Position numbers and translations under genes: made by a program. Source: Verrucomicrobiales bacterium (lineage in GTDB: Bacteria > Verrucomicrobiota > Verrucomicrobiia > Verrucomicrobiales > DEV007). From it: a stretch of DNA of 64,000 nt. The notes under the pieces were generated by a model, which was given only the letters and a program-made list of their open reading frames with translations, was not told the DNA's origin and did not search any database. Below are positions 1 through 49,119 of the stretch, in pieces (within the stretch, counting starts at the first letter, position 1; each line of letters starts with the position of its first letter). Where the stretch lies: the NCBI GenBank assembly GCA_041749135.1, contig JBGTBW010000146.1, positions 9,573 through 73,572 of the forward strand. Direction: 5' to 3'.

Positions 1-521
1 ACGATTCGCACCGTCGCGCGACGGTGATGTTCGGCGGCAGCCCGGACAATTCGGGCGCGAGCGACGAGACATGGGAACTCACCGCCGTGGACCTGCCGGT
101 CATCAGCGAACATCCTGTCAGTCAATACGGCGCGCTGGGTGGGCCCGCGACCTTCAGCGTCCTTCTCGCCATCCCCGGTCCCGTATCCTACCAGTGGCAT
201 CATGGGAACACGCCGATCCCCGGCGCGCGCTCCCAAACGTTTACGCTCGCGAACGTGCGCCCAGAGGATGCCGGCGAATACCGTGTCCAGATAACCAATG
301 CCTGCGGCGCCATCCGCAGTCGTCCTGCCCTTCTCTCACTGCATCCCGGCCTGAAAATCTTCTCTTCCGGCAAGGCCGTAACCTTGATCTGGCCGCCGGA
401 TTTGCGCGTCGTTCTTGAAACGGCTGAAAACTTGATCGGACCTTGGACGGGCATTCCCGATGCAACCAGCCCTTTCACCGTCAGCGGGGTTGGGCCATCA
501 AAGTATTTCCGCTTGCGGTAA
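1..521 (+). CDS. C-terminal part of a large secreted protein (5' end outside window). Ig-like (I-set-like) domain plus a conserved C-terminal '...LIWPP...W...YFRLR' tail.
   Basis: ORF open from the window edge (no upstream stop in frame). Ig-like motif YQWHHGNTPIPGA...FTLANVRPEDAGEYRVQITNACG. C-terminal ~50 aa resembles the tails of three other secreted proteins in this window. Confidence 0.6.
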   Translation, partial: DSHRRATVMFGGSPDNSGASDETWELTAVDLPVISEHPVSQYGALGGPATFSVLLAIPGPVSYQWHHGNTPIPGARSQTFTLANVRPEDAGEYRVQITNACGAIRSRPALLSLHPGLKIFSSGKAVTLIWPPDLRVVLETAENLIGPWTGIPDATSPFTVSGVGPSKYFRLR

Positions 522-743: not shown

Positions 744-3700
744 CTACTCCCTGACCTCCGCCCTCGCCCGGTAGAATCGAAGGGGGGCGTCGGAGGAGTC
801 AATGTAGACGATCCGGTCGCTGAGGCTGGGCACACGGGCAACCGGTGTCCACGTGATCAGGTCCGACGACGCTTCGATGAGATATTCGGTTCCCGGCCTG
901 GCCGGGAACGCGATGCGATAGTCGCGGGGCGTCTGTGAGGCGTTCGCTAGGGCCGGACTCCCGCCACCCGCGCCGCCCTCGATCCATGGCCCATTGAAAC
1001 CGGCCCCGAAGCCTCCGGGCGCCGTGCGGGCCAACGCTTTGGAGCCGGGGCCCTTCGAGTGGATTTTCAGGTTCCCGCCTCCAAGGGTCTGCTCGACAGT
1101 CCGTCGTCCGTTCCAGTGGCTGGAGAACCAGAGTCTGTCGTCTCGATCCCACACGGCGACCGCCAAGCTGTCGTTCCGTCCGGGTTCACCACGGTCGGTC
1201 AACAGCACCTGCAGGGTCGCCTGCTTATCCACTGTGATCCCCTTGCCCGGCCCGGTAACGTCGGAGATGACAACCCGCGCGGTGAACACGCTGCGGTTGT
1301 CCTGCACCGCGAGCGAGGTGAGCGCGCTGCTCTTGATCTGATACACGCGCTCATCGCTCCGCAACGTCAGGTCCACCGAACCCTGCAGCGTCTTCCCACC
1401 CTGGATGAACTTCGCGTTGAGCCCGAAGTCGAGCTTGGAGCCCGCGTCGCCCGGCACGATCCCATCCGAATCCGACAGCACCAGGAACCCGCCCCCGGTC
1501 ACCATGTCGCCGGCCAAGGGACGGGACACCGTCACCAGCACGTCGTCCTCACGGCTGTCCCTGTCGAACCAGCCTCCGATGATCATTCCGATCGAGTAGG
1601 ACTCCGAATCCGCGGAGCCGATGTCCACCGGCCAATCGAAGGAAACCATGCCGAGTTCCGGAGCATCTGGGTCCGGCGCCTGCACTGGCAGATCCCCGGC
1701 GATCACTAAACCGGTGGTGCGATCGACGAAGGTGACCGTCGCCTTCCGGATGTCGGCAGGATACGGGTCGTGCTCAAGATCGTCCGACGGCAGCGTGGAC
1801 AGATCCCAGACCGTGGCGCGCAGGGTCAGCATCGTCGTGCTGCTGGTGGGCGACGAGGCCCCCTGGAAGAGCACTCCGGCGAAGGAGCTCCGCGCGTCTT
1901 CCGGCAACACCGTGATCTCGAACTCCGCCTCCTCCGTGGCTGCGGTGGCGTCCTCGACCTCGACGCGGAACCGGTAATCGCCCGGCGCAACCCGCGCCCG
2001 CCCGGACAGAATCCACCGGACCGCATTTGCCTCGGTCGCGGTGAGGGCCCAGGACAGGCCATCCGGAACGCCGGGTTCGAACGGCGCCGCATCGTCCGCC
2101 CGCCTCCACGAGATTCGCACAACAAGGTCTTCGCCCGGCGTTTCTGCGTCGCCGGCGACCACGCTCACCGGCGCGATGGCGTCGCTGTACTGCACCGGCT
2201 GTCCGGCCCAATCGACGTCGAGGGCAGGCGGTGTTTGAACACCCCGGAGGTGCACCGTCGCCAGCGCAAACCCGCTCTCCGCACCGCCCGGGTCGCGCAC
2301 AGCGAAGCGGAACTGATCGGTGCGGTACTCGTCCCGCGGGACCACCAATCCGGCCGGCGGGGTGTAATGCACCGTCTCGCCCGACAGGATCACCTCGCCG
2401 AGCGTTCCTTCCGTGTCGATCGCGGCCACCCGCAAGGTGGAACGGTCGTCGTCTGGGTCCTCGGCGTTCGCCAACAGGCTGGCGGTCAGGTCCACCGTGA
2501 CCGGTTCGAGGGCGATCACCGCGTGCGCTTCCCCGGCCATGGGTGACGAATTGACCCCGGTGACGGTCACTGTGACCGTGCCGCGTCCGGTGGCGCCGAA
2601 GGGATCTTCGACGAGGTAGTCGAACTGGTCGGTGGCCGTCTCGCCCTCCTGCAAGCCATCGAAGCGCCTCGCCGGGGAGTAGAAGAATGCGGTTCCTAAG
2701 ACCCCCGCCTGGCCCTGGGTCAGCGAACGTTCCACGCCCGACACGCGCAGTTGGGCGGTCTGACCCGGGTCCGGATCGGCGGCCGTGGCGAGGAGCAACG
2801 CGGCAATCTCCACCGGGTCCTCATTCTCGGCCACCGTGATGGTAACCGGCCCGGCGGTGGGCGCGTCGTTGCGCCCCTGGATGCGGATCGTGACGCGGCC
2901 GGAGGCCGTGGAGCCCTGACGATCGCTGACGGTGTACCCGAAGGCGTCCATCCGTTCCCCGCCGGGCCCGAGCTTCGGACCGCTGCCGGCCGGGTTGTAA
3001 CTGAGCGTTCCATCCGGTGCGAGCGACACGGACCCCAGCACACCGCTGGCGTCGATGGCGGTGATCAGGGTCCGATCGCCCACGTCAGCATCCGTCGCCT
3101 GGGTCAGAATCGCATTGTCGATCACGTTGTCCCCGCTGTTCTCCGGAAGCGCGATGACCAGGTCCGGCGCGGACGGGGGATGATTCTCCCCATGAACCTC
3201 CACCGTCACCCGCGCCGAGGCGCGGGCCCCGTGCACATCCTCGACCACATACAGGAACGAGTCGGTCACTGACGTCCCGGGCGGCAGCGGAAAGCGCCCC
3301 TCCGGATCGTAGTGGAACACGCCGCCGCCCTGGTGCACCACCCGGCCGATGGTTCCCAGCGTGACGACATCGACGATGCCGAAGGTGTCGCCCGGATTCG
3401 AATCCGTGTCGTTGTCCATCACGCTCGGTGTCGTGAGAGCCGCAGTCGCCACCGTGCTGAAGCCAGCGCCCCCATCGTCCACGGCCAGCGGCGGATCGTT
3501 CTCCGCCAGCACCGTCACCGTCGTGTCGCCATCGAGACGCGTGAAGTCTCCCATCGTGACCGTCAGTGTGAACACGGCTGTCTCGGATTCGCCCACGGGA
3601 CGCCGGTACCGGCTGGGAACGAAGACCATCGCCCGCAAGGCCGCCTCGACCGTGCCGGCCGGACCTGCCAGTTCGTACGTGTCCTCGTTCGACCCGGTGA

Positions 3701-6700
3701 AACCGGGCGCGAGGAGCATCCCCTTCCCCGCGTCATCGATGGCCACGTGGACCGCGAGGGTTGTCGTGGCCGGGACTCGCAGTGAAACGCTCTCAAAGGG
3801 CATGGCAGTCTCGCGGTCGGTGATGCTCAGGCTCCGGATCCCGGACGGGGCGGGAAGCCCCGCGCCGTTGAACCACACCTGGTTGGGCCGGCCGAAGCCT
3901 CCGCCGAAGACCAGGTCCAGCGCTCCATCGCGGTTGAGGTCCCCCGCCACGATCGAGGTCATCGCATGCTCCGGTCCCGGCGTGCCTGCCTCTGGTGCGA
4001 AGGTTCCGGCGCCGTCGTTTACCAGCAGGACGGAACGGTTCACCGACTGCCCATCCACGAACTGGCTCTGAAGCACAATCAGATCGAGCGCCCCGCTCCC
4101 GTCGAAATCGCCCAGCGCCGCCCCCTGGACCGTGTTCCACGCGAAGGTCTGCGCCGTGGCCGTGAACTGTCCGGAGCCGTCGTTCAACCAAACCAGCGCT
4201 CCGGATCCGCTCCGCCGCACCGTGAGGATGTCCGCCGCGCCGTCCCCATTGACATCTCCGACCAACGGAAAGGCGCCACTTTCGCCGAGAGCCTGGAGAG
4301 TGTCGCGGAACACGCCGTGACCGTCGTTGAGCCAGACGAGCGTGGGCCCCAAGAACTGCCCGGCCACCAAGTCGAGGCTGCCGTCGTTATCGACGTCGGC
4401 GATCCGCACCTCGGTAAAGGTGCGGTTCGCGAAGCCGATGTCCGCCATGGCCACGGTGGATTCAGTGAACACGCCCGTTCCATCGTTCAGCCAGACCCGA
4501 GCGGCGGTGGTGTTGACCGTCACCAGATCCACGTCGCCATCTCCGTCGAGGTCCGCCGCCGCCACGCCCTCGAACAGGACGTCTGCCAGGGACTGTGAAC
4601 CCTCGGTGAAGCCACCGCTCCCATTGTTGAAGAAGAGCGCCAAGCCGTAGGGCTCCGAACGATGCGTGGTGATCACGTCGAGATACCCGTTGCCGTTGAG
4701 GTCCGCCAGTTGCGCCCTCGAAATGTATTTCGAGCCGACCGCCTGAGTCCCCTCCGCGAATCCCCCGGAGCCGTTGTTGAACCAAACCCGCCCGCCATAA
4801 GGGGCCGGCTGGCCGATATAGCCCAGCGCGTTCGGAACGAACAGGTCCGGATGCCCGTCTCCGTTCAGATCCCCGATAGCGATGCCGAAAGAGTTGTACT
4901 CCTCGTTGCCAATCCGCTGAAGGCTGTCGGTGAACGCGCCGGCTCCCGCCGGAGCCTCGATGACGAACTCCGATAGGACCGGCGCCGGGAGAATTTCGCC
5001 CTGCGCCCCGGTCAGTCCTGTGAGAACCGTCACGGTGACCCGTTCACCCGCGAAAAACCCGGTGTCCGGATCGAGGGTCAGCGTCAGGATCGTCCCGTCC
5101 AGTTCGCTCCGCACTCCGCGCGGTCCACTCTGTTCACCGGCCACCGAGAGGTTGGCCTCCACAGTGGCGGGATTGAGCGGGCGATTGAAACGGAGCACGA
5201 CGGGTTCATCGCCGGGCGCCGCGGGGTGATTGGGCGAAGGAAGCATCTCGACCACGCGCAGGGTCGAGCGCACGTCGAGCGTCACCGTCGCCGGCGCGGA
5301 GGTCCCCAGGCCGTCCGTGGCCCCATAGGTGAACGCATCGGCTCCCGTATGTCCCGGCGCCGGCGTGTAGACGAACGAGCCGTCGCGCCGAAGGGTGAGC
5401 GCGCCGTGAGCGGGCGATGTCACGAGCACGGCGGTGAGCGGATCGCCATCCGCATCGGCATCATTCGCCAGGACTCCCTGCGAGGCGGCGACCATAAAGG
5501 TATCCCCCGCGGGCGCCAGGTAAGGTCCGTCGTCGTCCGCCACCGGAGCGGTATTCCCGATCTTCACCCGGGCAGGCGCCGAGGCCGCCTGCGCATCCGC
5601 GGCCCGGTAGGTGAACACATCCACCCCGGCGAAGCCCGCCCCCGGAGTGTAGGTGAACCCTCCATTCGCGCTGAGGACCACGCTCCCACGCGTGGGAGGG
5701 GTCACCAGTTGGGCCTGCATCGGACCGCCGTCGCCCGGCAGGTCGTTCGCCAGCGGGCCCTGAGCGGCGGCAACGACGACCGGAGACGTTCCGTTGGCCG
5801 GATAAAAGTCGTCGCGGGACACCGGGGCGGACTGATTGAGCCAGACCTCATTGCCGGAGCCGATGGACCGGCTGTTGTTGACCACGAATACGTCGAGGTC
5901 GCCGTCGCCGTCGAGATCCGCAATCGCCGCATGATAGCTGTCCGAGGCGCCCAGCAGCGGGCCAGAGAGGGCGAATCGGGCGGAACCGTCATTGAGCAGG
6001 ACGGCGTCCCCGCCGCCCTGGCCCGCGCCATCGCGGACATCCGCCTGCCACACGTCGAGGCGGCCGTCCCCGTTCAGGTCGCCGAGCCCGGCCCCGAGGG
6101 TGAAGCGCCGGTGAATCTCGTAGGGTGAGCGATGGAAGTTCGCAGCACCGTCGTTGAGCCAGACCTCGTTAGCGCCGGAGTTGACCTGGTGCACAACCCA
6201 GGCGTCGAGGGCGCCGTTGCCGTCGAGGTCCGCCAGCACGACCTGGCGCGCCCACGTGGGGTTGACCACGCCGGACCGTAGCGAGAACCGCGCCCCGCCC
6301 TCGTTGATGAGCAACTGCCCGCCCTGGATGCCGGCAAGGTACACATCCATGAACCCATCGTTGTTCAAATCACCTACAGCACCGGCGGACGCCGACGTGA
6401 TCGCGATGGCGGAGCCGGCATCGAGCGTGAAGTTTCCATGGCCGTCATTCCGCCAGACCCAGGCCCACGTGGCGTTGACTCCCAGCAGGTCGAGCGCTCC
6501 GTCCCCGTCAAAGTCGCCCGCCAGCAGGAAACTGGGCGACCCGAACGGGAGGCTCGACAGACCGAATGTCACGACGTCGGCAGCGGGAAACTCGCCAAGG
6601 CCGTCATTGAATCCGATGCGCAGTTCCGTGCTCCGGCCGCCAAAGGCATTGTCCGCCTGACCAATCAGGACCAGGTCGGGATGACCGTTGCCATCGAGGT

Positions 6701-9700
6701 CCGCCACGAGCGGCGCAGAGCCACGGAAGGCGAGGTTAGGGTATTGAAGACCGAGAGATTCTTCGCGCTCGGTGAACGTGCCGTCACCCTGGTTCAGGTA
6801 AAGGCGCGGATGCGTGTCGCGGTTCCAAACCACCGCTTCGGACGCCCCGTCCCCATTCAGATCCGCCAGCGTCACGAACTCGCTGAATTCCGTGGTCGAG
6901 CTTCCCGCGAGAGTGCGCTCAAACACCGCGCTGCCCCGGGGAACGGCGGCGTGAAACCGCCAGGCGTGAGGCCGCGCAAGCTCGGCCGCCGCGCCGCCCC
7001 GAATGCCAGCCGACACATGGACCGTGATGGATTCCCCGGGAAGGAACGGCGCCGCCGGGACCAGGGTCACTTCCGATCCGTTGACCGCCGCAGTGACCTC
7101 CCGGCGCCCGGTCAGGGACCCGAAGACGTTCAACCGCCCGGCCATCGAGGGCTCGTCCAGGGACTGGCTGAACGTGATCCGCACCGGACCGTCCGCCGGG
7201 GCGTCCGGCGTGTGGGCCGCCGGGTCCACCGACACAATCTCCAGCCGCTCGATGACCCGCAGCGACACCGTCGCCGGCCCGGACCAACTCCGCCCGTCGG
7301 AGGTCCGGTAGGTGAAGGTATCGACGGCGGCAATGCCTGGTTCCGGGGTGTACTGGAACGAGCCGTCGGAGGTGAGGAACAGCGTCCCGTGCGAGGGCGG
7401 CGTGACCAGTTCGACCACCAGACCGGCATCGCCGTCCGGGTCGCGGTCATTGGCCAGAACGCCCTCGGCGGCCGGCACGATCCGCGTCTCTCCTTCGAAG
7501 AGCGCGTAGACGTCGTCCTCGGCCACCGGCACGGCGTTCCCCAGCTTGACTCGCGCCGAGGGATAGAACCCATAACTGTACGGTGTGCCGGCGCTGTACA
7601 CGAAGGTGTCGGACCCGGGATGGTCAGGGTTGGGCGTGTAGCGGAACGCCCCGTCCTGCAGGAGCTCTAGCGTCCCATGGACCGGCGGGGTCGCCACCTG
7701 CGCCCACGCGGTTGCGGTCGCCGGCAGCTCCAGGTTCGGATCGAAATCGTTGGCCAGCACCCCCTCCGCAACCGGCGCCTCGATCACTTCGGCGCCGTCG
7801 TAGACATAGAAGTCGTCCGCCAGGATCAGCGCCCGGGCGCCCAGGGCGACGCGGATCGGACCGGACAGATAGCCGATCTCGTCCGCCCGCACCCGGTAGG
7901 TGAAGGCGTCGATGCCGCTGCTCAAGGAGTCGAACGATCGATACTCGAATCCCCCATCCAGATGCAGCGTGAGCGTGCCGTTGGCCACGTTGTCGACCAG
8001 TTCGGCGATTAGCTCGAGTCCGTGGGTGTTGAGATCGTTGGCCAGGACCCCGCCGCCGGCGTCCACGTCCAGGTAAAAATAGGCGTCGACGACGTTGTTG
8101 AGATCGAACGACACGAAGGAGTAGTGGTCCGGTCTCGCCTCGGGAGCGTCCGCCTCGCCCGTGACCTGGATGGTGACGGTGACCGGGTCCGATTCCAGGT
8201 CGCCGTCGGTCAGGAAGTAGCGGAACGAATCAGTCCCCCGGTAGGACGGAGGGGGTGTGTAGGTGAAACTGCCGTCGGCCCGCAGTTCCAGTTCACCATG
8301 TTCGGCATACACAGGCACGCGGGCCGCCCAGCTGCCGTCCGGCCAGTCGCCGAAGTATTCGAGGTCCTCGTACGGCGCCCCTGGCCACCGGGTCAAAAGA
8401 TCGTACAAGCGGCCCTCCACCCAGACATCGGTACGCACCGAAAAGTCGTCACCGTCCGGGTCCGATGCCCCCTGCAACAAGCCATGGGAGCGTGGCAGCT
8501 CGATCACGCCGTTCTTTTCGATTGCGAAGGTCTGCGGAGCTGCCGGCACGGGTGGCCGGTTGCGGATGATCCCGAAGGTCCGGGTCTCCGTGGGGAAGAA
8601 GGACGAACCCGCCGCGCTGGTCAGGGTGTCCCGCACCGTGACGTTCACCGTTTCGCCGCGGATAAACCTTTCGGAGAAGCTCAGGGTTGCCTCCCGTCCG
8701 TCGCCGGACAGCGCGACGGAGAAGTCCTGCCGCCCGCTGCTTGAACCGCTTACTTCGACGTGGGATCCCACGGCATCCCCGGTCACCGGTTCGTCGAAAG
8801 ACAGCACCACTGGGGTCCAAGCCTCACCTTCGTCGCCCGGCTCCGGGGTCAGCGTCAGCCAGTTGAGTCGTGAGTGGACCGTCAGAGTAACAGTGATCTC
8901 CTCCGACACCCGCCCGTTGAAATCCTGAATCCGGTAGATGAACCGGTCCTCGCCGTTGAAGAAAGTGTTCGGCAGGTAGGTGAAGCTCCCGTCCTCGAAC
9001 AGAGACAGGGAGCCGTGCTCTGGATCGGTGACAAGCCCGGCACGGGGCGAGTCGCCGAAGTCATTCGCCAACACGCCGTCCGCAGCGTCCACCGTTAGCA
9101 GGATGTCCTCGATCCCCTCGTAAGCCTCCGGCTCCCCGGACGGAGCCACGCTCTCGAACGCGCCGATGTCGCGCGGTCCGCCGAGCGCGCGAAGAACTCC
9201 CCTCTGATCCACGGCATCCCCGGGAAAGAGAGTCCCCGGCGTCCCGTTGTCCCGCGCTGGACTGCCTGTACGCAGCGCGTGAGTGCGGGTGCGGCCCCCG
9301 TTGTGTTCGAGGGGCCCCAAGCCGGGATCCTGCGCCGTCCGGAACCGCGCGGCTTCGGGGAGGAGCAAGTCGCTCAGCAACGCCGCCTGCCCGCCCGTCC
9401 CGTCGGTATCGAGGTTGTAGCCGGTTGAGGTGATGAAGGTCTGGAGGGTCAGGGTGCGGTTGTAAACGTCATCCGGCCGATTGTGGGCTAGAATGGTCCC
9501 GGCGATGTTGACTGCCGACACCCCAAGGACCTCCGGCTCCAGGCTCGCCTTCAGCGAACTCATCGCCGTCGAGTAGATCCCCCCGCCCTGCCGGGTCAGG
9601 CCGTTGATGGCCTCATTGCCGTGGATCGTGCAGTTGAACAGCGTGGCGATCGCCGTGCCCTCAGTGAAGCTACCGTTGTAGAGGCCCCCGCCGAAGGCCG

Positions 9701-12368
9701 GCAGCGGGATGCCCAGCGTGCCCTCGCCGTCCACCGTGTTGCCGGTCAGCGTGCAGTTCTGCATCGTCACGGTGCTGATGAGGATCGTGCTGGACCCGGT
9801 GCACTCGTTGTAGACTCCCCCGCCCTTCGACTTCCCCTTCGCGATGTTCCCGCTGACGGTGCATCCGGTGAGGATCGCCTGGCCGCCGTTCTCGTTGCGC
9901 AGCCCGCCCCCGTAGGCCGCGATGACCCCGGAAACACGGTTGTCCGCCAGGGTGCTGTCCTGGGCCAGCAGGACGCCGTAGTAGTCGTTGGCGATGGCCC
10001 CGCCGCCCCCGGAGGTGTTGTCGTTGAGATCGCAGCGCAGCACGCGGACAAGGCTGCCGAAGGTGGTCTTCATCGCTCCGCCGCTCGACAGGAACAGCGC
10101 CTCCGCCTCGTTCTCGTTCAGTTCAGAATCGGTCACTTGCGTGAAGGAGGCGAAACTGTGGACCGCTCCGCCCATCGCCAGGATCGTCGTGGCGCGAACC
10201 CGGTTTTCGTTGAGCTTCGAGCCGGTCACCTCGAGGGCGCTGAAAAATGAACTGATGCCCCCGCCATGGCTGCCCAGCGCGCTCGCCGATTCGTTGCCGG
10301 TCAGCACCGAGTTCCGGATCTTCAATAGCCCGAGGTCGGTGTGAATGCCGCCCCCGAAAACCAACGCCCGCGGCGTGGCCAGGTGATCGGCCACGTAACA
10401 GCGCAGCCAGCCGCCGTCCACCCAGCAGACATCCATCAGATGGCGCGCGGCGGCGACTCCGGTCCCGGCCTTGTTCCCCTCGATGACCGAGTCCATCACC
10501 TCGGTGACGGGTGAGCCGAGCCCAAGCCAACCGGCAACATTGGAGAAGGGATCGTTGCCCGCGGAGCCGTCGCCCAACTGGTCCTCCATGTATTCTTCGG
10601 CCGATCCGGCCTGTTCGGCGCGGGTGGAAGACCTGGCGACGTACTCGGCCTCGACCGCCTCGGCCTGGGATTCGCTGGTCGGATCCAAGGGCGGCGTGAC
10701 ATCGGCGAGGTCCGACCGATGCCCGGTCAATTCCTCCGACGCGGTGCGTCCTCCGCCCACGCGCAGGGTGGAGACGTTCAGGCCGCTGCTGCTGATGCCA
10801 CCCCCGTTCCGTGCGGCCGCGTTGTTGCGGATGATGCTATTTCGGACCGTCAGCCGCGCCGCACCGCGGTTGTAAACGCCGCCCCCCTCGCCGCCGAAGT
10901 AATCGAACGCCCGGCAGTCGCGCACCTCGCAGCGGTCCAGCACCACCGTGCCCTGGTTGTAGATTCCGCCGCCGCTCGGGGCCAGACCGTCGATGACGGT
11001 GAGATCCTCCAGATGGAGCGTCCTGCCCGGAAGCACGGTGAACACCGATCCCAGCAGTGCGCCCGAAACGAAGGTCCGCCCGATGCCCTGACCGCGGATC
11101 GTCAGGTCGCGATCCACGATGACGTTGTCGTAGTACGTCCCGGCTTCGAGGCGGATCTCGTTGCAGCGCGGGTTGTCGAGCGCCGGCAAAAGATCGCCCA
11201 TATGCGGTGGAGCAATGACGAGCGCGGTGTCGTCCGTGAAGCCCCCTGTGAAGTCGAGGACCCCAAGGCTGCCCCAACCGGCGTTGTTTGAATAGTACCA
11301 ACCCACTCGCCGGGTCCCGCCATGCCCTCGTGCCAGCACATCGAGCGGCTCGTAGTGGTGAATGGGATCGTAGCCGCTGCCGCCATCGAGCAGTTCCCCC
11401 TGCGTGATCGTTCCCGTCGGCAAGAGGCTCGCGGTGAACCCGACCTTGACGGTCGCGCGCGCCTTAGCCTGCCGTCCTCCCCGGGGAGGCAGCGTCATCG
11501 ACACCGGGTCCGTGGACAACTGCGCCCCGGACAGTTCCCAAGCCGTGTCTCCCAGCAGATTCGCGACTCGGCCATGTCCCGAGCTGTCCGTCGCCACATT
11601 CCCGGTCCCGTCATCCATCCGCCAGTACGCAATGAGACCGGGCTCCGTGACCGCAAGCTGACCGTTCATGTTTCCGGCGATCTGCGACGGCGTTCGCGCT
11701 ACGGTCCAGATCCGGACTTCGTCTACGCTGCCATCAAGGTAGCTCCCCGGACAAAACCCGATCGTGACCGGGCTGTTGTTCGAGCCTTGCGGCCGGATCA
11801 GCTCTTTCCAAGGCTGGCCGAACGCGTTGAGTTGGGGCGACTTCGCCATGAACACTCCGTTCACGTAGAGCCGAGCCTCCGGAATGGACGCGTCATACAC
11901 TGCCGCCAGATGCACCCACAATCCGGCCGGGATGTTCCAAGGGTACGCATCGAGATAGCTGTTTGCGGCATTCAAATCGAATACCGGCACGCCGTCGCGC
12001 CGGAGCCCTAACAACCACTCGCCCGGCCCCGGCGCATGTCTCCAGCCCGGCCGCGACATCTTGGCCACCGCCGGACTCATGCCGCCCAGCTCGGCTTCAG
12101 CATAGCGGACCATCCAGGCCTCGATCGTGAAGCTGTCGTCCGGTCCGATCGGAATCCCGTGCGCCTCCGCCTTCGAGGTGACCCCATTGAAGAGCAGGGC
12201 TCCTCCGGCCACGTCCTGGGCTCGGGCGTCCGGCATGGCCAAGCTTGCCCAGACCACGGAAACCACCAGCGCCGCGCGGAGCCAGGCGTGCCGCACGCGT
12301 CCGGAGGGGGTTGCCAGTTCGGCATGACAGGGGCCGTCGCCGGCCTCAACAAACGTGTGTATTCTCAT
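744..12368 (-). CDS. Giant (~3,870 aa) secreted adhesin-like protein. Signal peptide, LamG/concanavalin-like domain, parallel beta-helix repeats (GGGIYN/GGGVYN/GGGLYN), many FG-GAP/VCBS repeats (DLDGDGxxDL), tandem cadherin-like VLANDxDxDGD domains, C-terminal FYR tail.
   Basis: 4,019-codon ORF in the six-frame track. A likely true start is the ATG at 12368 (MRIHTF...AWLRAALVVSVVWASLAMPDARA signal-like segment), which overlaps the stop of the upstream receiver gene (ATGA). Repeats are read directly from the translation: ADLNGDG, DLDGDGDLDVFVVN, GVLANDRDPDGD (x6+), beta-helix GGGxYN repeats, LamG motif DGSVDEVRIWTVARTPSQI. Confidence 0.85.
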   Translation of the reverse strand: MRIHTFVEAGDGPCHAELATPSGRVRHAWLRAALVVSVVWASLAMPDARAQDVAGGALLFNGVTSKAEAHGIPIGPDDSFTIEAWMVRYAEAELGGMSPAVAKMSRPGWRHAPGPGEWLLGLRRDGVPVFDLNAANSYLDAYPWNIPAGLWVHLAAVYDASIPEARLYVNGVFMAKSPQLNAFGQPWKELIRPQGSNNSPVTIGFCPGSYLDGSVDEVRIWTVARTPSQIAGNMNGQLAVTEPGLIAYWRMDDGTGNVATDSSGHGRVANLLGDTAWELSGAQLSTDPVSMTLPPRGGRQAKARATVKVGFTASLLPTGTITQGELLDGGSGYDPIHHYEPLDVLARGHGGTRRVGWYYSNNAGWGSLGVLDFTGGFTDDTALVIAPPHMGDLLPALDNPRCNEIRLEAGTYYDNVIVDRDLTIRGQGIGRTFVSGALLGSVFTVLPGRTLHLEDLTVIDGLAPSGGGIYNQGTVVLDRCEVRDCRAFDYFGGEGGGVYNRGAARLTVRNSIIRNNAAARNGGGISSSGLNVSTLRVGGGRTASEELTGHRSDLADVTPPLDPTSESQAEAVEAEYVARSSTRAEQAGSAEEYMEDQLGDGSAGNDPFSNVAGWLGLGSPVTEVMDSVIEGNKAGTGVAAARHLMDVCWVDGGWLRCYVADHLATPRALVFGGGIHTDLGLLKIRNSVLTGNESASALGSHGGGISSFFSALEVTGSKLNENRVRATTILAMGGAVHSFASFTQVTDSELNENEAEALFLSSGGAMKTTFGSLVRVLRCDLNDNTSGGGGAIANDYYGVLLAQDSTLADNRVSGVIAAYGGGLRNENGGQAILTGCTVSGNIAKGKSKGGGVYNECTGSSTILISTVTMQNCTLTGNTVDGEGTLGIPLPAFGGGLYNGSFTEGTAIATLFNCTIHGNEAINGLTRQGGGIYSTAMSSLKASLEPEVLGVSAVNIAGTILAHNRPDDVYNRTLTLQTFITSTGYNLDTDGTGGQAALLSDLLLPEAARFRTAQDPGLGPLEHNGGRTRTHALRTGSPARDNGTPGTLFPGDAVDQRGVLRALGGPRDIGAFESVAPSGEPEAYEGIEDILLTVDAADGVLANDFGDSPRAGLVTDPEHGSLSLFEDGSFTYLPNTFFNGEDRFIYRIQDFNGRVSEEITVTLTVHSRLNWLTLTPEPGDEGEAWTPVVLSFDEPVTGDAVGSHVEVSGSSSGRQDFSVALSGDGREATLSFSERFIRGETVNVTVRDTLTSAAGSSFFPTETRTFGIIRNRPPVPAAPQTFAIEKNGVIELPRSHGLLQGASDPDGDDFSVRTDVWVEGRLYDLLTRWPGAPYEDLEYFGDWPDGSWAARVPVYAEHGELELRADGSFTYTPPPSYRGTDSFRYFLTDGDLESDPVTVTIQVTGEADAPEARPDHYSFVSFDLNNVVDAYFYLDVDAGGGVLANDLNTHGLELIAELVDNVANGTLTLHLDGGFEYRSFDSLSSGIDAFTYRVRADEIGYLSGPIRVALGARALILADDFYVYDGAEVIEAPVAEGVLANDFDPNLELPATATAWAQVATPPVHGTLELLQDGAFRYTPNPDHPGSDTFVYSAGTPYSYGFYPSARVKLGNAVPVAEDDVYALFEGETRIVPAAEGVLANDRDPDGDAGLVVELVTPPSHGTLFLTSDGSFQYTPEPGIAAVDTFTYRTSDGRSWSGPATVSLRVIERLEIVSVDPAAHTPDAPADGPVRITFSQSLDEPSMAGRLNVFGSLTGRREVTAAVNGSEVTLVPAAPFLPGESITVHVSAGIRGGAAAELARPHAWRFHAAVPRGSAVFERTLAGSSTTEFSEFVTLADLNGDGASEAVVWNRDTHPRLYLNQGDGTFTEREESLGLQYPNLAFRGSAPLVADLDGNGHPDLVLIGQADNAFGGRSTELRIGFNDGLGEFPAADVVTFGLSSLPFGSPSFLLAGDFDGDGALDLLGVNATWAWVWRNDGHGNFTLDAGSAIAITSASAGAVGDLNNDGFMDVYLAGIQGGQLLINEGGARFSLRSGVVNPTWARQVVLADLDGNGALDAWVVHQVNSGANEVWLNDGAANFHRSPYEIHRRFTLGAGLGDLNGDGRLDVWQADVRDGAGQGGGDAVLLNDGSARFALSGPLLGASDSYHAAIADLDGDGDLDVFVVNNSRSIGSGNEVWLNQSAPVSRDDFYPANGTSPVVVAAAQGPLANDLPGDGGPMQAQLVTPPTRGSVVLSANGGFTYTPGAGFAGVDVFTYRAADAQAASAPARVKIGNTAPVADDDGPYLAPAGDTFMVAASQGVLANDADADGDPLTAVLVTSPAHGALTLRRDGSFVYTPAPGHTGADAFTYGATDGLGTSAPATVTLDVRSTLRVVEMLPSPNHPAAPGDEPVVLRFNRPLNPATVEANLSVAGEQSGPRGVRSELDGTILTLTLDPDTGFFAGERVTVTVLTGLTGAQGEILPAPVLSEFVIEAPAGAGAFTDSLQRIGNEEYNSFGIAIGDLNGDGHPDLFVPNALGYIGQPAPYGGRVWFNNGSGGFAEGTQAVGSKYISRAQLADLNGNGYLDVITTHRSEPYGLALFFNNGSGGFTEGSQSLADVLFEGVAAADLDGDGDVDLVTVNTTAARVWLNDGTGVFTESTVAMADIGFANRTFTEVRIADVDNDGSLDLVAGQFLGPTLVWLNDGHGVFRDTLQALGESGAFPLVGDVNGDGAADILTVRRSGSGALVWLNDGSGQFTATAQTFAWNTVQGAALGDFDGSGALDLIVLQSQFVDGQSVNRSVLLVNDGAGTFAPEAGTPGPEHAMTSIVAGDLNRDGALDLVFGGGFGRPNQVWFNGAGLPAPSGIRSLSITDRETAMPFESVSLRVPATTTLAVHVAIDDAGKGMLLAPGFTGSNEDTYELAGPAGTVEAALRAMVFVPSRYRRPVGESETAVFTLTVTMGDFTRLDGDTTVTVLAENDPPLAVDDGGAGFSTVATAALTTPSVMDNDTDSNPGDTFGIVDVVTLGTIGRVVHQGGGVFHYDPEGRFPLPPGTSVTDSFLYVVEDVHGARASARVTVEVHGENHPPSAPDLVIALPENSGDNVIDNAILTQATDADVGDRTLITAIDASGVLGSVSLAPDGTLSYNPAGSGPKLGPGGERMDAFGYTVSDRQGSTASGRVTIRIQGRNDAPTAGPVTITVAENEDPVEIAALLLATAADPDPGQTAQLRVSGVERSLTQGQAGVLGTAFFYSPARRFDGLQEGETATDQFDYLVEDPFGATGRGTVTVTVTGVNSSPMAGEAHAVIALEPVTVDLTASLLANAEDPDDDRSTLRVAAIDTEGTLGEVILSGETVHYTPPAGLVVPRDEYRTDQFRFAVRDPGGAESGFALATVHLRGVQTPPALDVDWAGQPVQYSDAIAPVSVVAGDAETPGEDLVVRISWRRADDAAPFEPGVPDGLSWALTATEANAVRWILSGRARVAPGDYRFRVEVEDATAATEEAEFEITVLPEDARSSFAGVLFQGASSPTSSTTMLTLRATVWDLSTLPSDDLEHDPYPADIRKATVTFVDRTTGLVIAGDLPVQAPDPDAPELGMVSFDWPVDIGSADSESYSIGMIIGGWFDRDSREDDVLVTVSRPLAGDMVTGGGFLVLSDSDGIVPGDAGSKLDFGLNAKFIQGGKTLQGSVDLTLRSDERVYQIKSSALTSLAVQDNRSVFTARVVISDVTGPGKGITVDKQATLQVLLTDRGEPGRNDSLAVAVWDRDDRLWFSSHWNGRRTVEQTLGGGNLKIHSKGPGSKALARTAPGGFGAGFNGPWIEGGAGGGSPALANASQTPRDYRIAFPARPGTEYLIEASSDLITWTPVARVPSLSDRIVYIDSSDAPLRFYRARAEVRE

Positions 12369-12766
12369 CTGACAGGTGTTGATGGAGTGGGTAGGTTCCA
12401 AGGAGTGCCCGAAGCGATCAGGCCATAGAGGGGTTGAAGGTCGTCCTTGAGGAAACAGGCAAGGGCCCCGGTCTGCGCAGCGCGCTCCCGAAGCACCGCG
12501 TCGTCGAACTGGCTGACCAGAACGATGCGCGCCTCCGGGAACCGGCTCAGGATGGCGCGGGTCGCCGAAAGGCCGTCCACCGGAGACATCTGAATGTCCA
12601 TGATCACCCAGTCCGGCTGCACCTCGGCGTAGCGGCTTACCGCCTCCGCCCCGCCTTCCGCCTCGAAGACCTCGCTGCCCAGCGGACTCAGCAGCCCGCG
12701 CAGCAGCAACCGCGTCGGCGGATGATCGTCCACCACAAGGATCCTGGCATTTCCCAAAGTGGCCAT
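12365..12766 (-). CDS. Stand-alone CheY-like receiver (REC) domain protein
   Basis: ILVVDDHPPTRLLLRGLL...DWVIMDIQMSPVDGLSATRAIL...RIVLVSQFDD has the phospho-acceptor Asp context. ATG at 12766. Its TGA stop overlaps the ATG of the giant adhesin gene (ATGA at 12365-12368). Confidence 0.7.
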   Translation of the reverse strand: MATLGNARILVVDDHPPTRLLLRGLLSPLGSEVFEAEGGAEAVSRYAEVQPDWVIMDIQMSPVDGLSATRAILSRFPEARIVLVSQFDDAVLRERAAQTGALACFLKDDLQPLYGLIASGTPWNLPTPSTPVR

Positions 12767-12940
12767 GACCGCGGATCGTGACACAACTCCCGCCGCCGAA
12801 CATCGGAGGGGATGCGTAGAAAGGGCTACGGGTGGTTGCCTACGTAGCGCTACGGAGGGGACGCTCGCCGCCTCGATGAAGTGCGCCACCGACAGGGTCC
12901 AGGTGGGGCGCCAGCGTTTCAGCGGACCCGGATCCGACCG

Positions 12941-13594
12941 TCACAACCTCGACCGGTTCGCGAAGGCGAACTTAAGCAGGCTGTGGGCGCCCTCGAGGTG
13001 CAGCTTGTGGCTCATGTTCTGCCGGTGGGTGTCCACGGTGCGCACGCTGATGCCGAGCAGATCGGCAATCTCCTTGGTGGTCTTGTCGTCGGAGATAAGG
13101 AGCAGGATCCGCCGTTCCGCAGCCGTGAGCCGCTCGATGCCCGGCTTCTCGCGCTTCAGAGCCCTTCGTTCTTCGGCCCGGCGGGCGACCAACCCGGAGA
13201 GGGTGGGGCTGATGTAGGTCCGGTCGTCGAGGACGTATCGGATCGCGGTGAGGACATCCGTCACGGCATTCTCCTTGAGCACGTAGCCGCGGACGCCGAG
13301 ATCCATTGCCGCCTCAAGGAACTCGGGATCCTCGTGCATCGTCAGGAGCACCAGCCTTGTCGGGTGGTCTTCCTCGCGCAGCACCCGCGCCACCTCCAAG
13401 CCGGTCCGTTTCGGCATGCGCACGTCCAGGATCGCCACCGCCGGACGACGCGCCCGGATCAACGCCAGCGCCTCCTCACCGTCTCCGGCCTCCCCGACCA
13501 CGCGTATCGAAGGCTCCTCCCCAAGCACATCCACCAGGCCGCGGCGGAAGACCGGATGATCATCAGCAATGATCAGTTCGTGCGGCGCAGTCAT
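12941..13594 (-). CDS. NarL/FixJ-family response regulator (REC + LuxR-type HTH)
   Basis: LIIADDHPVFRRGL...AILDVRMPKRTGLEVAR...LLTMHEDPEF; C-terminal LTAAERRILLLISDDKTTKEIADLLGISVRTVDTHRQNM (LuxR HTH). The start ATG overlaps the upstream kinase stop (ATGA at 13591-13594). Confidence 0.85.
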   Translation of the reverse strand: MTAPHELIIADDHPVFRRGLVDVLGEEPSIRVVGEAGDGEEALALIRARRPAVAILDVRMPKRTGLEVARVLREEDHPTRLVLLTMHEDPEFLEAAMDLGVRGYVLKENAVTDVLTAIRYVLDDRTYISPTLSGLVARRAEERRALKREKPGIERLTAAERRILLLISDDKTTKEIADLLGISVRTVDTHRQNMSHKLHLEGAHSLLKFAFANRSRL

Positions 13595-16500
13595 GGATCA
13601 GAGAGGACGGGCTGAGCGAGTGGCACGAAGATTTTCACCCGGACGCCGGTCCCTGGACGGGACTCGAACTCGATGCGGCCTCCAATCGTACCGACCCGTT
13701 CGCGAAGGCTCCGCAGGCCGAAACCGGCCCCCGGCGAACGGAGGTCGAACCCGCAGCCGTCGTCGCGGATGAGGGCTGCAAGTCGGTCGCCTCCCCGGCG
13801 GACGCTCACGGAGGCGGAGCGCGCGCCCGAATGTTTCGCGATGTTGGTCAGGCACTCCTGCACCGACCGGAAGAAGTGGATCTCCGCGGACTTGGGCAGG
13901 GCGCCGTCCAGGTCCTCCAAGTCGGTATTCACCTCGATGCCCGACGCGTCCCCCAGTCGGCGGGCGATGTGGGCGATCGCCTGCGTCAGGCCGAGTTCAT
14001 CGAGCTGGAAAGGTCGAAGTTCGTGCGCCATGGCACGAACTTCGCGAAGGGATTGCGAGGCGAGCTCAGAGACCTGGGAGAGTTCCTGGGACATCCGCCG
14101 CCCCTCACCCTCATGACGAAGCCCGAGCAGGGCGCGATTCTTGATGACTAGCAGGTTCTGCCCGAGGCTGTCGTGCAGCTCCGCCGCCAGCCGACGGCGT
14201 TCCTGTTCCTGCGACTCCATCAGGCGCCGCGAGAACTCATGCTGAAGCCGGCGTTCCCGCTCCAGACGAGTCACCCGCGTGCCGTAGCCCAGGGCCAGCA
14301 GGCTGGCAAGCGCCCCGGCACCCGCCGCCCGGAACCACCACGTCTGCCACCAGGCCGGCCGGATGGTCAGCGCCACCGTGCCCGCCGTCTCGCTCCAGAC
14401 CCCGTCGTTGTTCCCGGCCATCACCTCGAATCGGTACCGGCCAGGCGGCAATCCCTGGTACGAGGCCACGCTTTCGCCGCCCACCTCTCGCCACTCGGTG
14501 TCGAAACCGGTCATGCGCCACCGAAAATGCACCCCCGACGGAGCCGCCAGGCTGATGCCCGTGTATCGGATGTCCACGCGTCGCGGACCTGGCGGTACTG
14601 TCACGGACGCAACCGGTCCCGGCTCCCCCTGCGCTACACCGTCCACCAACACCTCCTCGACCAACACGCGGGGCGGATGGAGGTTTCGCGGCAGACGCGC
14701 CGGGTCCACCACGGCCACACCGTCCACCGTCGCGAACCAGAGCCGCCCGTCGCGCGCCCGCAATGCCGAGGGATATCCGGAGGCGCTCTGGCCCGACGGC
14801 AGCCCATCGACCTCGCCGTAGGCGGTGGGATGAACCCGAAGCGTCTCTCCACGCAGGTGCGCGTCGACTCCGGCGCGGGACAGCCGGAAGACTCCACGGT
14901 TCGATCCAAGCCAGATCGAGCCTTCCCGATCATCAAGGATGCTCGTCACCTCCGCCTCGCCGAGTCGATCCCCGGCGTCGATGCGGTGAATCTTCTCGTC
15001 GCGCCAGAGGGCGAGACCCAGCCGGGTTCCGATCCATAGGGTACCCTCGCCCTCCGCATGCAGAGAACGCACCCCCGGGCTTGGCAGTTCTCCCTCGATC
15101 CGCGTCACCACCCCGTCGCGGAAATGCAGCAACCCCTCGTCTCGCATCCCAATCCACATTCCGCCGTCCGGATCGCGCTCGAGGACGTGCATCGCGTCGC
15201 GAGGGACTTCCCCGGGTCCCGGTTCCAAAGCCCCTGTCGCGTCGTCCCGGCGCCACAAGCCGTCCTCGGCGCCCAACCACAATGTTCCGGCCGCGTCCTC
15301 GCACAGCGTGCGAATGAACAAACTCCGGGCATCGGTCCCGCCGGTGCCGAAAACCTCGATACGCCCGTCGGCGTCGAGCGCGAAGTATCCCGCCCCGTAT
15401 GTTCCAAACCAGATTCGGCCGTCTCGTCGCATGACCGCGGCCCAGGCGTTCTGAAGCCCCGAATCGCCGGGAATCGACACCCCCGACCCGTTGATCACGG
15501 CCAACCCACCGTCCAGACGACCCGTCCAGATGCGTCCGGCCGCATCTTCGGCGATGGTCAGCGGCATCAGGGCTGGCGGAGGGAAGTCGCGGCCCCGGTG
15601 CAGCATCCGAAAGACCCCCGGCCGCACTCGCACCAGACCACCGCCGTTGGTCCCTACCCAGAGGTTGCCCTCCCCGTCCAGGGTCATCGCACGCACCGAC
15701 GCCGCGGGGAACCCCTGCTCCACCCCCACCCGCTGCATGACACCGGTGCTCCCGTCCAGGCGCACAAGGCCCGCACGCCAGCTTCCGATCCAGAACTCCC
15801 CAGGCGCCTCCTCGATCAGCGCGCAGGCGCCACGCACCTCGGCAAAGTGCAGCACCTCCGGCTCCGCTTCCCCGAGGCGAATGCCGGTGATCGAATCGCT
15901 ACGCAATAGCCAGACCCCCCCGCCAATCCGCGGCGACAATACATCGAACCTCCGGACGCCATCCCCGGCGCCCGTCGACCACTTCGTCCAGGTCTCCCCG
16001 TCAAATCCGAACAACTCCTCCTCCGTGCGCAGCCAGATCCAGCCCGCCACCGCCCGGTCGTTCACCATCCCCGTCACTGGCAGTTCCGACGGCGGCCCCG
16101 CGATCCGCGAAAAGCGCTGTTCATCGAACCGCCACAGCTCGCCGGACACCGTGGCAAACACCATGGACCCGTCCGCACCACGCACTCCACCCCGCGCAAG
16201 GCACCGTTCCATCGGCCAGCCCGAGTTGGCCTCGAACGTGCCGTACCGCCCGTCCCGCATGCGCACCAGTTCACCCCGTTCCATAGAAATCCAGATATCG
16301 CCATCCGCCCCCGCCGCCATCCGGAAACTCCGGTCGCTTACCATCCCGGGTTCGCGCCGGTCGAACAGCCGGAACCGGACCCCGTCGAAGCGCGCCAGGC
16401 CGCCAGAAGTGCTGACCCAGAGATACCCATCGGAAGTCTGCTGGATCGCATGGATCACGTTATCCGGCAGACCGTCCTCCACCCGCCATACCCGAACCGA

Positions 16501-16686
16501 GTAGGGCGCGACTGGCGCGGCGGCCTCGATACGAGGCTCGGTCAGTAGCGTTCCCCCCAACAATACGAGGAACACCCGTCCAATCCACGGGCAACGTGCC
16601 CCACGACCCGACGCCCTGGCCTTCGAGACACCGCCCTTCCAAGGTTGCTCTGGAAAGACAGAGAACGATGTGGGCGCTTGCTGCAT
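13591..16686 (-). CDS. Sensor histidine kinase with a large periplasmic two-component-regulator beta-propeller/Y_Y_Y-type sensor region, one TM segment, a HisKA_3 dimerisation domain and a HATPase_c domain
   Basis: 1,031 aa. Repeated propeller-like units (DGxLWIGT, GGLxRxD). TM segment WWQTWWFRAAGAGALASLLALGYG. H-box LAAELHDSLGQNLLVIKN (HisKA_3). C-terminal ATPase motifs (DDGCGFD, GFGLRSLRERV). Confidence 0.8.
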   Translation of the reverse strand: MQQAPTSFSVFPEQPWKGGVSKARASGRGARCPWIGRVFLVLLGGTLLTEPRIEAAAPVAPYSVRVWRVEDGLPDNVIHAIQQTSDGYLWVSTSGGLARFDGVRFRLFDRREPGMVSDRSFRMAAGADGDIWISMERGELVRMRDGRYGTFEANSGWPMERCLARGGVRGADGSMVFATVSGELWRFDEQRFSRIAGPPSELPVTGMVNDRAVAGWIWLRTEEELFGFDGETWTKWSTGAGDGVRRFDVLSPRIGGGVWLLRSDSITGIRLGEAEPEVLHFAEVRGACALIEEAPGEFWIGSWRAGLVRLDGSTGVMQRVGVEQGFPAASVRAMTLDGEGNLWVGTNGGGLVRVRPGVFRMLHRGRDFPPPALMPLTIAEDAAGRIWTGRLDGGLAVINGSGVSIPGDSGLQNAWAAVMRRDGRIWFGTYGAGYFALDADGRIEVFGTGGTDARSLFIRTLCEDAAGTLWLGAEDGLWRRDDATGALEPGPGEVPRDAMHVLERDPDGGMWIGMRDEGLLHFRDGVVTRIEGELPSPGVRSLHAEGEGTLWIGTRLGLALWRDEKIHRIDAGDRLGEAEVTSILDDREGSIWLGSNRGVFRLSRAGVDAHLRGETLRVHPTAYGEVDGLPSGQSASGYPSALRARDGRLWFATVDGVAVVDPARLPRNLHPPRVLVEEVLVDGVAQGEPGPVASVTVPPGPRRVDIRYTGISLAAPSGVHFRWRMTGFDTEWREVGGESVASYQGLPPGRYRFEVMAGNNDGVWSETAGTVALTIRPAWWQTWWFRAAGAGALASLLALGYGTRVTRLERERRLQHEFSRRLMESQEQERRRLAAELHDSLGQNLLVIKNRALLGLRHEGEGRRMSQELSQVSELASQSLREVRAMAHELRPFQLDELGLTQAIAHIARRLGDASGIEVNTDLEDLDGALPKSAEIHFFRSVQECLTNIAKHSGARSASVSVRRGGDRLAALIRDDGCGFDLRSPGAGFGLRSLRERVGTIGGRIEFESRPGTGVRVKIFVPLAQPVLSDP

Positions 16687-33574: not shown

Positions 33575-33593
33575 GAACTCCGCGCCGCAACGT

Positions 33594-49116: not shown

Positions 49117-49119
49117 CCC

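Follow-up and report, generated by a model that had tools for sequence, protein, structure and literature searches.

Little is understood of how the Verrucomicrobiota and their relatives place large adhesins and enzymes on the cell or outside it. The stretch of 64,000 nucleotides analysed here (the window) poses this problem in a specific form: four of its genes code for otherwise unrelated proteins that appear to end in one and the same short segment. This raises the question of whether these segments are homologous, what fold they adopt, and what they might do at the ends of such disparate proteins. An initial annotation had described them as a C-terminal module of ~55 aa on secreted proteins and read it as a candidate sorting or secretion tail, distinct from the PEP-CTERM motif.

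The first tail (A; 324..518, forward strand; ...PALLSLHPGLKIFSSGKAVTLIWPP...SKYFRLR in translation, stop at 519-521) is the terminal short Fn3-like module of a gene of which only the 3' part lies in the window, as a partial ORF with a Pfam Ig_3 match (3..521, forward strand). The complete protein A has 652-663 aa and combines a Kelch propeller, I-set and Ig_3 with the tail; its full-length cluster representative, P0008, has Kelch, Ig_3 and I-set matches, and the tail is kept in the orthologue P0001 at 57% identity. Tail B (747..956, reverse strand; ...PALANASQTPRDYRIAFPARPGTEYLIEASSDLITWTPV...LRFYRARAEVRE in translation, stop at 744-746) closes a giant adhesin (744..12803, reverse strand) of 4019 aa if counted from the first ATG. 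The true start of this gene is likely the ATG at 12368, which gives 3874 aa with a signal-peptide-like segment and matches the 3874-aa cluster representative P0006, whose terminal copy of the module is identical to tail B. Protein B matches Big_9, Cadherin_4/5, FG-GAP, Laminin_G_3 and Beta_helix in Pfam and tandem-95, VCBS and choice_anch_Q in NCBIfam, with a sub-threshold NCBIfam match to post_COAP_1 immediately ahead of the tail. Tail C (23170..23376, reverse strand; PPLSNVHWTDEGLSLTLPAGGAWDVEYSETMEPAAWEAIAV...GYYRGVRR, stop at 23167-23169), the most divergent of the four copies, terminates a 1351-aa protein (23167..27222, reverse strand) with a signal peptide followed by PA14 and Laminin_G_3 domains detected with Pfam. 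Finally, tail D (51568..51783, reverse strand; PLLSLELSVAGDTVTLQWDASAGQRYQPEYLDVLAEGDWLPLG...QQRFYRLRLLD, stop at 51565-51567) is borne by a 540-aa protein (51565..53187, reverse strand) with a signal peptide and a PAP2/vanadium-haloperoxidase-like domain, matched by the Pfam models PAP2, VCPO_2nd and VCPO_N. The description of the hosts as secreted is supported for proteins C and D, whose N-termini (MRKILRPQSSKRLVVALFLLLSLVPGSAEE and MKTCSILIVSLVLGIFPGAVFAST, respectively) are signal-peptide-like by eye, and is plausible for protein B at the internal start of P0006; for protein A, the signal peptide was found on an upstream Kelch gene outside the window, which overlaps the remainder of gene A by 11 nt in locus L085.

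At the level of sequence comparison, the four window tails alone are insufficient to demonstrate homology, and it is the wider family that makes it clear. Among 559 six-frame stop-to-stop segments of at least 60 aa in the window, exactly four carry [FY][FY]R within their last 14 residues, and these are tails A-D. Against an external family profile of 123 non-window copies, from which the window sequences were left out, tails A to D scored 23.5 bits (E 2.4e-6, aligned over aa 117-172 of the 172-aa fragment), 53.0 bits (E 1.5e-15), 22.7 bits (E 4.2e-6) and 58.8 bits (E 2e-17); the best non-tail segment of the window reached 6.2 bits (E 0.6), and this profile detected no further copy of the module there. 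A partial ORF at 63581..64000, considered as an extra copy at E 0.26 with an earlier profile, was absent with the better one. That the resemblance is a chance or compositional motif and not homology, as the pairwise identity of 15-31% among the four tails and the failure of leave-one-out HMMs, each built on three of the tails, to recover the remaining one might suggest, is exceedingly improbable in view of the distance between the external-profile E-values (2e-17 to 4e-6) and the noise (0.6), a motif count for which chance predicts ~0.1 cases among ~45 real genes (P ~4e-6), and two independent high-confidence models with the same six-strand fold. The tails are present in the translated sequence as first described and, by the external profile, form one homologous module on otherwise unrelated exported proteins; its length is, however, ~65-72 aa rather than ~55 aa, counted from a P-x-L motif that precedes the first Trp.

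A whole-library HMMER search recovered 1,777 clusters at E<=1e-3; the library is clustered at 50% identity, and this figure is a lower bound on the size of the family. The labelled records among them are few and all belong to the Verrucomicrobiota (Limisphaerales, Verrucomicrobiia). A word-indexed homologue search, which is nearly blind to a short divergent domain, returned no matches with the tail alignment, two with protein A and 10 short ones with an alignment of 128 family sequences. None of the four window tails matched a Pfam or NCBIfam model at E<=10, and the 128 family members gave only single marginal matches to curated models (fn3_4, E 0.038; Tissue_fac, E 0.0047), and the 25 families listed did not include PF00041. 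On these comparisons, the family is not modelled by Pfam or NCBIfam, and we found no literature on the module.

As modelled with AlphaFold2, the tail is a compact ~70-residue domain of the fibronectin type III fold class. The models of tails D and C (pLDDT 92.7 and 94.5, respectively) have six strands each, in a Greek-key beta-sandwich that is superimposable on solved Fn3 domains. Consistent with this, the family profile gave weak matches in the PDB to FN3con and an Fn3-like protein, and the family HMM also weakly touches the canonical bacterial Fn3 repeats of giant proteins. The DSSP strings show six strands, with the chain terminating after the last, and not the seven strands and 90-100 residues of an Fn3 domain. 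Likewise, adjacent copies in arrays follow a period of 70-84 aa in 204 of 216 pairs, as opposed to 90-104 aa in canonical-Fn3 proteins from the same match list. The predicted strands can be equated with Fn3 strands A, B, C, C', E and F. Judged from the DSSP strings and the repeat period, the G strand of the canonical domain appears to be absent, the polypeptide stopping 4-5 residues past the F-strand motif R-F-Y-R-[LV]. The conserved Trp, Glu and R-F-Y-R look like structural, core residues rather than a binding site.

The layout of these motifs recalls Fn3 domains such as the Clostridium thermocellum Fn3-like protein (PDB 3mpc), the CtXyl5A module (5g56) and PF00041, with a hydrophobic/Trp B strand, a C strand of the form Y-x-[LV]-E and a Tyr-containing F strand, where FYR[LV] is comparable to the Y-x-V-x-A of Fn3. 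Both types of domain are also found on extracellular proteins in tandem arrays with Pro linkers. A canonical Fn3 module usually has an internal position, whereas the present module is nearly always the last element of its protein, and its ~70 aa without a G-strand segment contrast with the 90-100 aa of the canonical form. A local resemblance of the B-C-C' region to discoidin/F5_F8 type C (CBM32) domains, in the pattern 'v.L.W....Y.ie.S.d...W..v', is seen in profile matches to PDB 2rv9 and 4zxe at E ~2e-4 (1.6e-4 for 2rv9) over only ~50 residues and in below-threshold matches of 5 of the 128 members to F5_F8_type_C_2. Membership in that group (PF00754, PF22633) was rejected, since its members are jelly rolls of ~130-150 aa, twice the size of the module, whose top structural matches are to Fn3.

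The most consistent property of the family is its position. In the best 150 of the 1,777 clusters, a copy lies at the extreme C-terminus of 138 proteins, and in 99 of these 138 the chain ends exactly 4-5 aa past FYR; no PEP-CTERM-like or TM-like C-terminus was found beyond the module in any of the 150. Tandem arrays occur in most of the library matches, with 2-8 copies (median 2, maximum seen 8) joined by Pro-rich linkers. The shares given for arrays and for terminal copies could both be overestimates, because the ranking by summed score favours multi-copy proteins and the seed profile was built from terminal copies. The copies detected when the window and the fetched loci were translated in six frames temper these biases, if with a small sample: all 18 are terminal and every one is single-copy, with nine of nine terminal in 789 kb of loci fetched via an unrelated gene and four of four in 1.16 Mb of genome loci. 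Given this nearly constant location, the module might serve in surface anchoring or in sorting. The cargo, in turn, is very diverse and includes adhesins, proteases, lipases, the PAP2/haloperoxidase-like enzyme and Kelch/Ig proteins.

The catalytic part of protein D (aa ~25-470) is conserved at 63-74% identity across 80 genomes from many phyla, but the tail is missing from 79 of the 80 orthologues and is present only in the closest relative (locus L025); all but three of the tail-less orthologues end within 11 residues of aa ~470. The module was added to protein D recently and in a lineage-specific manner, with the orthologues elsewhere ending ~70 residues earlier.

On architecture alone, we tentatively prefer the reading that the module is an end-piece for non-covalent surface retention or for the binding of a common ligand. 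The family forms the C-terminal end-piece of Sec-exported proteins, either as a single copy, as in the window, or as an array of up to 8 copies. As far as can be inferred, such an array always ends the protein, with no other anchor after it, and the module itself would thus most likely be the attachment or binding end. By means of it, the exported proteins might be held non-covalently at the cell surface or might bind the common ligand. The tail would stay on the mature protein, as opposed to acting as a cleaved export signal.

A more prosaic alternative, which we consider somewhat unlikely, is that the module is an ordinary structural spacer or stalk of the Fn3 type without any role in targeting or anchoring, its C-terminal bias having arisen from growth by duplication and fusion at 3' ends or from a simple capping role. 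The generic Fn3 fold, a sequence that grades into the canonical Fn3 repeats of bacteria and the resemblance of the conserved positions to core residues all speak for it. So do the copies inside one protein, whose frequent near-identity points to recent duplication in tandem, and the 45 of 126 terminal copies whose closest relative is an internal copy of their own protein. A spacer of this kind would, however, connect to nothing: ~92% of the best 150 proteins end exactly with the module and have no later anchor, and the 18 unselected detections are both single and terminal. Furthermore, the one copy added to the compact enzyme D was retained by selection in two relatives, and the fact that the whole family has uniformly lost the G-strand segment suggests a specialised form.

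An unlikely reading, and the one closest to the initial annotation, is that of a true sorting or secretion domain resembling the C-terminal domain (CTD) of the T9SS, in which a putative OM translocon or sortase-like enzyme of these Verrucomicrobiota would bind the last copy in the periplasm as its recognition site; the cargo would be exported and perhaps cleaved or attached, and the internal copies would be duplicated spacers. This reading draws on the strict C-terminal rule with its fixed distance from the last strand to the protein end, the diverse Sec-exported hosts, the lineage-specific addition to enzyme D and, among the best 150 proteins, an apparent mutual exclusion with PEP-CTERM or TM anchors. 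Protein B has, in addition, a 'choice-of-anchor' domain, and proteins with such domains usually end in some sorting signal. Terminal copies are also somewhat closer to the terminal copies of other proteins than to internal ones (59 versus 22 nearest neighbours), and more often have Arg/Lys two residues past FYR (57% of terminal copies against ~29%); both would fit a terminal-specific signal.

The analogy to T9SS cargo extends to structure, in that T9SS CTDs are likewise described as small Ig-like beta-sandwiches on Sec-exported cargo (PMC11285876; PMC12618676), with a 3+4 seven-strand architecture according to PMC11285876. Like the type A CTD (Por_Secre_tail, PF18962/TIGR04183), the module is a small sandwich at the extreme C-terminus of diverse Sec-exported cargo, as on proteins C and D with their signal-peptide-like N-termini, and it shares with that domain a restricted lineage distribution and the ability to be joined to enzymes that have no tail in other phyla. 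Identity with a T9SS CTD was nevertheless rejected on the basis of the six strands, the common arrays and the want of any match to Por_Secre_tail, TIGR04183 or the type B CTD; indeed, neither the 128 members nor the four tails matched any sorting-domain HMM of Pfam or NCBIfam. The hosts of the module, moreover, are Verrucomicrobiota and not Bacteroidota, and the T9SS is described as limited to the Bacteroidota and the FCB group.

The generic fold also speaks against a sorting domain, as do the arrays, in which up to 8 copies can be nearly identical. To our knowledge, tandem arrays are a feature of no known sorting tag. No conserved neighbour gene or machinery recurs in the five genomic contexts of module-bearing genes that we inspected, and neither these nor the window contain genes for the T9SS translocon or PorU/PorV; nor did we find such a system in the literature. 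One module-bearing gene, P0005, is located after a T2SS-F gene and three pseudopilin genes, in a single case. The initial proposal of a sorting tag is thus only partly supported: it agrees with the C-terminal position and the restricted lineage distribution but not with the generic nature of the fold, the occurrence of tandem arrays or the lack of any partner machinery seen. It had named a generic fold without C-terminal enrichment as the outcome that would count against it, and only half of this was found: the fold is generic and Fn3-like, but the C-terminal enrichment is strong (138 of the 150 best matches).

Other export routes were rejected as identities for the module. The window does encode a PEP-CTERM protein (17127..17714; PF07589, E 6.8e-7), as initially noted, and PEP-CTERM/exosortase substrates resemble the present proteins in sharing a C-terminal feature across many exported proteins of environmental Gram-negative bacteria, here in the same organism. 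The PEP-CTERM signal, however, comprises ~25 aa in which a Pro-Glu-Pro motif is followed by a TM helix and a basic cluster, whereas the module is predicted to be a folded soluble domain that has none of these; the four tails have no PF07589 match, none of the 150 best module proteins has such a C-terminus, and the distinction originally drawn between the two stands. A T1SS signal of the RTX type, in which Gly-rich nonapeptide repeats precede an unstructured C-terminal signal and the N-terminal signal peptide is missing, disagrees with the signal-peptide-like N-termini of proteins C and D and with the lack of RTX/HemolysinCabind matches in proteins B, C and D, and an unstructured T1SS C-terminal signal disagrees with the confident modelling of the tail as a folded sandwich.

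A more specific variant, which we regard as unlikely, is that the end-piece is the address tag of an undescribed sorting or surface-attachment system of the Verrucomicrobiota, in function analogous to the T9SS CTD, with the terminal copy possibly recognised by a partner in the OM or envelope. Such a partner might donate a G strand to the exposed edge of the F strand, by beta-strand complementation, and the internal tandem copies would then constitute a stalk.

What emerges is a large domain family, of at least 1,777 clusters, that lies outside the current curated libraries. As these libraries do not model it, hundreds of long 'hypothetical' surface proteins are left without informative annotation. 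Were the module only a structural Fn3 variant, its recognition would be a useful but ordinary piece of annotation. Its strictly C-terminal placement, the G strand that is missing throughout the family and the lineage-specific fusion onto a conserved enzyme together make it a concrete, testable candidate for a role in surface retention or sorting. The seed alignment and HMM built in this analysis would permit genome-wide counts and phylogenetic profiling for a partner.

The window (GC 62.5%) has gene content typical of the Planctomycetes-Verrucomicrobia group, with a PSCyt2/PSD1-DUF1501-WD40 operon (47002-51481), sugar-metabolism and transporter genes, and a 195-aa PEP-CTERM protein (17127..17714, + strand) in which three near-identical ~43-aa repeats covered by no Pfam family (consensus YYVADGGLRSV.FDGTQF..TFDQ.EVLSPNWTAMS.DSAA) lie between a signal peptide and the PEP-CTERM anchor. 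Four other proteins end in similar tails: A (3..521, +), the 3' end of a Kelch/Ig protein; B (744..12803, -), a giant adhesin with Big_9, cadherin-like, FG-GAP, VCBS, LamG and choice-of-anchor-Q domains; C (23167..27222, -), with PA14 and LamG; and the PAP2/vanadium-haloperoxidase-like D (51565..53187, -). Signal-peptide-like N-termini are present on C and D, and B has such a sequence at an internal start shared with its database representative, P0006. Gene A (663 aa) has no signal peptide of its own; one is encoded, together with Kelch repeats, by a 284-aa gene that precedes A beyond the window edge and overlaps it by 11 nt. The pair (16319..19154 of L085, the locus to the left of the window in the same organism, and window 3..521) probably represents a single gene interrupted by a frameshift, whether genuine or introduced in assembly. 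In B, the choice-of-anchor-Q domain occupies aa 1159-1218, and aa 3768-3915 (about nt 1059..1502, -), just before the tail, give a sub-threshold match to NCBIfam 'post-COAP-1' (28 bits vs a cut-off of 40). Proteins with post-COAP-1 or choice-of-anchor domains usually have a C-terminal sorting signal, which may be of several alternative types.

Among the six-frame segments of at least 60 aa, only the tails of A-D carry [FY][FY]R in the last 14 residues, a motif expected in about 0.1 cases among ~45 genes (P about 4e-6). Their pairwise identity is only 15-31%, and HMMs built from three window tails did not recover the fourth; hence, the window alone is no proof of homology. A HMMER search with a profile of the four tails and one orthologue against 1.84 billion representative proteins gave 1,777 clusters at E<=1e-3, 71 of them at E<=1e-10. 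When a second profile, made from 123 copies outside the window, was scored on the window segments, it matched the tails of D (58.8 bits, E 2e-17), B (53.0 bits, E 1.5e-15), A (23.5 bits, E 2.4e-6) and C (22.7 bits, E 4.2e-6), as against 6.2 bits (E 0.6) for the best other segment, with no further copies in the window. These profile scores argue firmly for the homology of the four tails and bear out the initial annotation in its claim of one common C-terminal module, though at 65-72 aa, not the ~55 aa first given.

No Pfam or NCBIfam model matched the four tails at E<=10, and 128 family members gave only scattered sub-threshold matches; this large family is clearly absent from the models of the curated libraries. 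AlphaFold2 models from the family alignment (pLDDT 92.7, pTM 0.78 for D; pLDDT 94.5, pTM 0.80 for C, the most divergent tail) each contain six strands, with the chain stopping right after the last. In terms of the fibronectin type III (Fn3) fold, we read 'tLsW' as strand B, 'Y.LE.S' as C, the invariant Trp as C', and 'RFYR[LV]' as F with its tyrosine. Foldseek aligned the models to Fn3 scaffolds at TM 0.55-0.61 and found no match at E<=1e-3, and therefore no close solved relative; by sequence, the family profile weakly matches FN3con and 3mpc. Adjacent copies in ordinary family members recur at intervals of 70-84 aa in 204 of 216 pairs, whereas a few giants with canonical bacterial Fn3 repeats, also touched by the profile, show a period of 90-104 aa and the usual 'G.S..S' continuation. 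The tails are thus short Fn3-like domains lacking the G strand, and within the Fn3 fold class the module stands apart as a short variant. The profile also matches discoidin-type CBM32 domains, over ~50 residues only, which we take as a local motif resemblance because size and fold disagree. In its way of working, the module most resembles C-terminal anchoring and sorting domains; membership in the T9SS CTD, PEP-CTERM, T1SS-signal and discoidin families was rejected because their defining features were tested for and found lacking.

Local re-mapping of the best 150 of the 1,777 matches yielded 458 copies (median 2-3 per protein), usually in tandem arrays with short Pro-rich linkers and numbering eight in P0005, a 2994-aa S8 peptidase. 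A copy occupies the extreme C-terminus in 138 of these best-scoring proteins, with exactly 4-5 residues following 'FYR' in 99 of the 138; most of the other 12 carry a degenerate ..F[YLF]R[LV].. at their end or are canonical-Fn3 giants, leaving ~3-4 true exceptions. Since both the summed-score ranking and the use of terminal copies as the seed bias this list, we also examined six-frame translations of fetched loci. All 18 detections there and in the window were single terminal copies: four in genome loci (1.16 Mb) retrieved with D's catalytic part as the query, nine (0-6 aa before the stop) in metagenome loci (789 kb) retrieved with the tail-less DUF1501 protein, one in an extra ORF of locus L084, and the four window tails. 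The tails firmly obey a strong C-terminal rule. In none of the best 150 is the module followed by a PEP-CTERM-like or TM-like end, in keeping with the earlier view that the tail is distinct from PEP-CTERM.

The tails are firmly modular, and their cargo is diverse (Kelch/Ig, Big_9/cadherin, YDG/MBG, DUF11/Calx-beta/LTD, SdrD_B, lipase/esterase, S8 peptidase, PAP2); the few labeled records belong to Verrucomicrobiia, Limisphaerales and Verrucomicrobiota. For D's catalytic part (aa ~25-470), 80 genomes from many phyla have orthologues of 63-74% identity. The tail is absent from 79 of these 80 orthologues, all but three of which end no more than 11 residues from aa ~470; the three that read further contain no copy. 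Only the closest relative (L025, 74% identity) possesses it, and in D the P-x-L start of the module directly joins the '...F.PL' end of the enzyme; therefore, the module was added recently to a compact enzyme in this lineage and then kept. The D-type enzymes (loci L002-L081) come from MAGs of Verrucomicrobiota, Acidobacteriota, Proteobacteria, Nitrospirota, Myxococcota and Planctomycetota, an unusually high conservation across phyla that suggests horizontal spread, and some of these labels may be binning errors.

Copies within a protein are often nearly identical, pointing to recent duplication. Arg/Lys lies two residues past FYR in 57% of terminal vs about 29% of internal copies, and nearest neighbors in other proteins are terminal in 59 cases vs 22 internal, although terminal copies form only ~30% of the pool. 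Terminal copies thus bear a weak signature of their own, and the neighbor excess could in part reflect an architecture conserved among distant homologues.

Five module-gene neighborhoods have no gene family in common, and no exosortase-, T9SS- or sortase-like genes were seen in the contexts inspected. Only the P0005 locus (L082 1..9854, on the 10.5-Mb circular contig ERZ25074506) adjoins secretion-type genes, a single case in which the gene lies immediately downstream of T2SS-F and three pseudopilin (prepilin-type N_methyl) genes; three unannotated genes (259, 349 and 1385 aa) are also among its upstream neighbors. A two-component system lies directly upstream of B (12941..16686, -; also L085 4104..4475): its Reg_prop/Y_Y_Y hybrid sensor kinase (1031 aa) and LuxR-type response regulator (217 aa), with a small stand-alone receiver (123 aa), are possibly dedicated regulators of the adhesin. 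Elsewhere in the window, 31403..39089 (+) encodes a 723-aa protein without a Pfam match and a 1831-aa DUF3686 ('ATPase involved in DNA repair')/DUF7902/AAA_5 protein, followed by a 263-aa ORF (39098-39889), also unmatched, and a GNAT acetyltransferase; together, they may form a defense- or repair-type module. Sizeable ORFs of 478, 356, 324 and 321 aa with coding-like GC3 (44377..47005, 28562..29536, 54885..55850) likewise lack Pfam matches.

From the architecture, we tentatively propose that the module is a retained end-piece that itself binds something, most plausibly a cell-envelope component, and would in this way hold exported enzymes and adhesins at the surface. What favors this reading is that the array is always the last element of the protein, with no other anchor after it. 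A purely structural variant of Fn3, whose fold it shares, is a rather less probable account, for a spacer leading nowhere would make little sense. The sorting tag originally proposed, in the sense of a genuine export signal analogous to the T9SS CTD, is a less likely possibility. It would agree with the positional rule, with the fusion specific to this lineage, with the weak signature of terminal copies and with the choice-of-anchor context of B; it is disfavored by the tandem arrays and by the fact that neither an HMM match nor any machinery was seen. We found no description of the module in the literature searched, whose coverage was partial, so an earlier account is possible. The module itself combines a known fold, in a new variant form, with an unusual rule of position.
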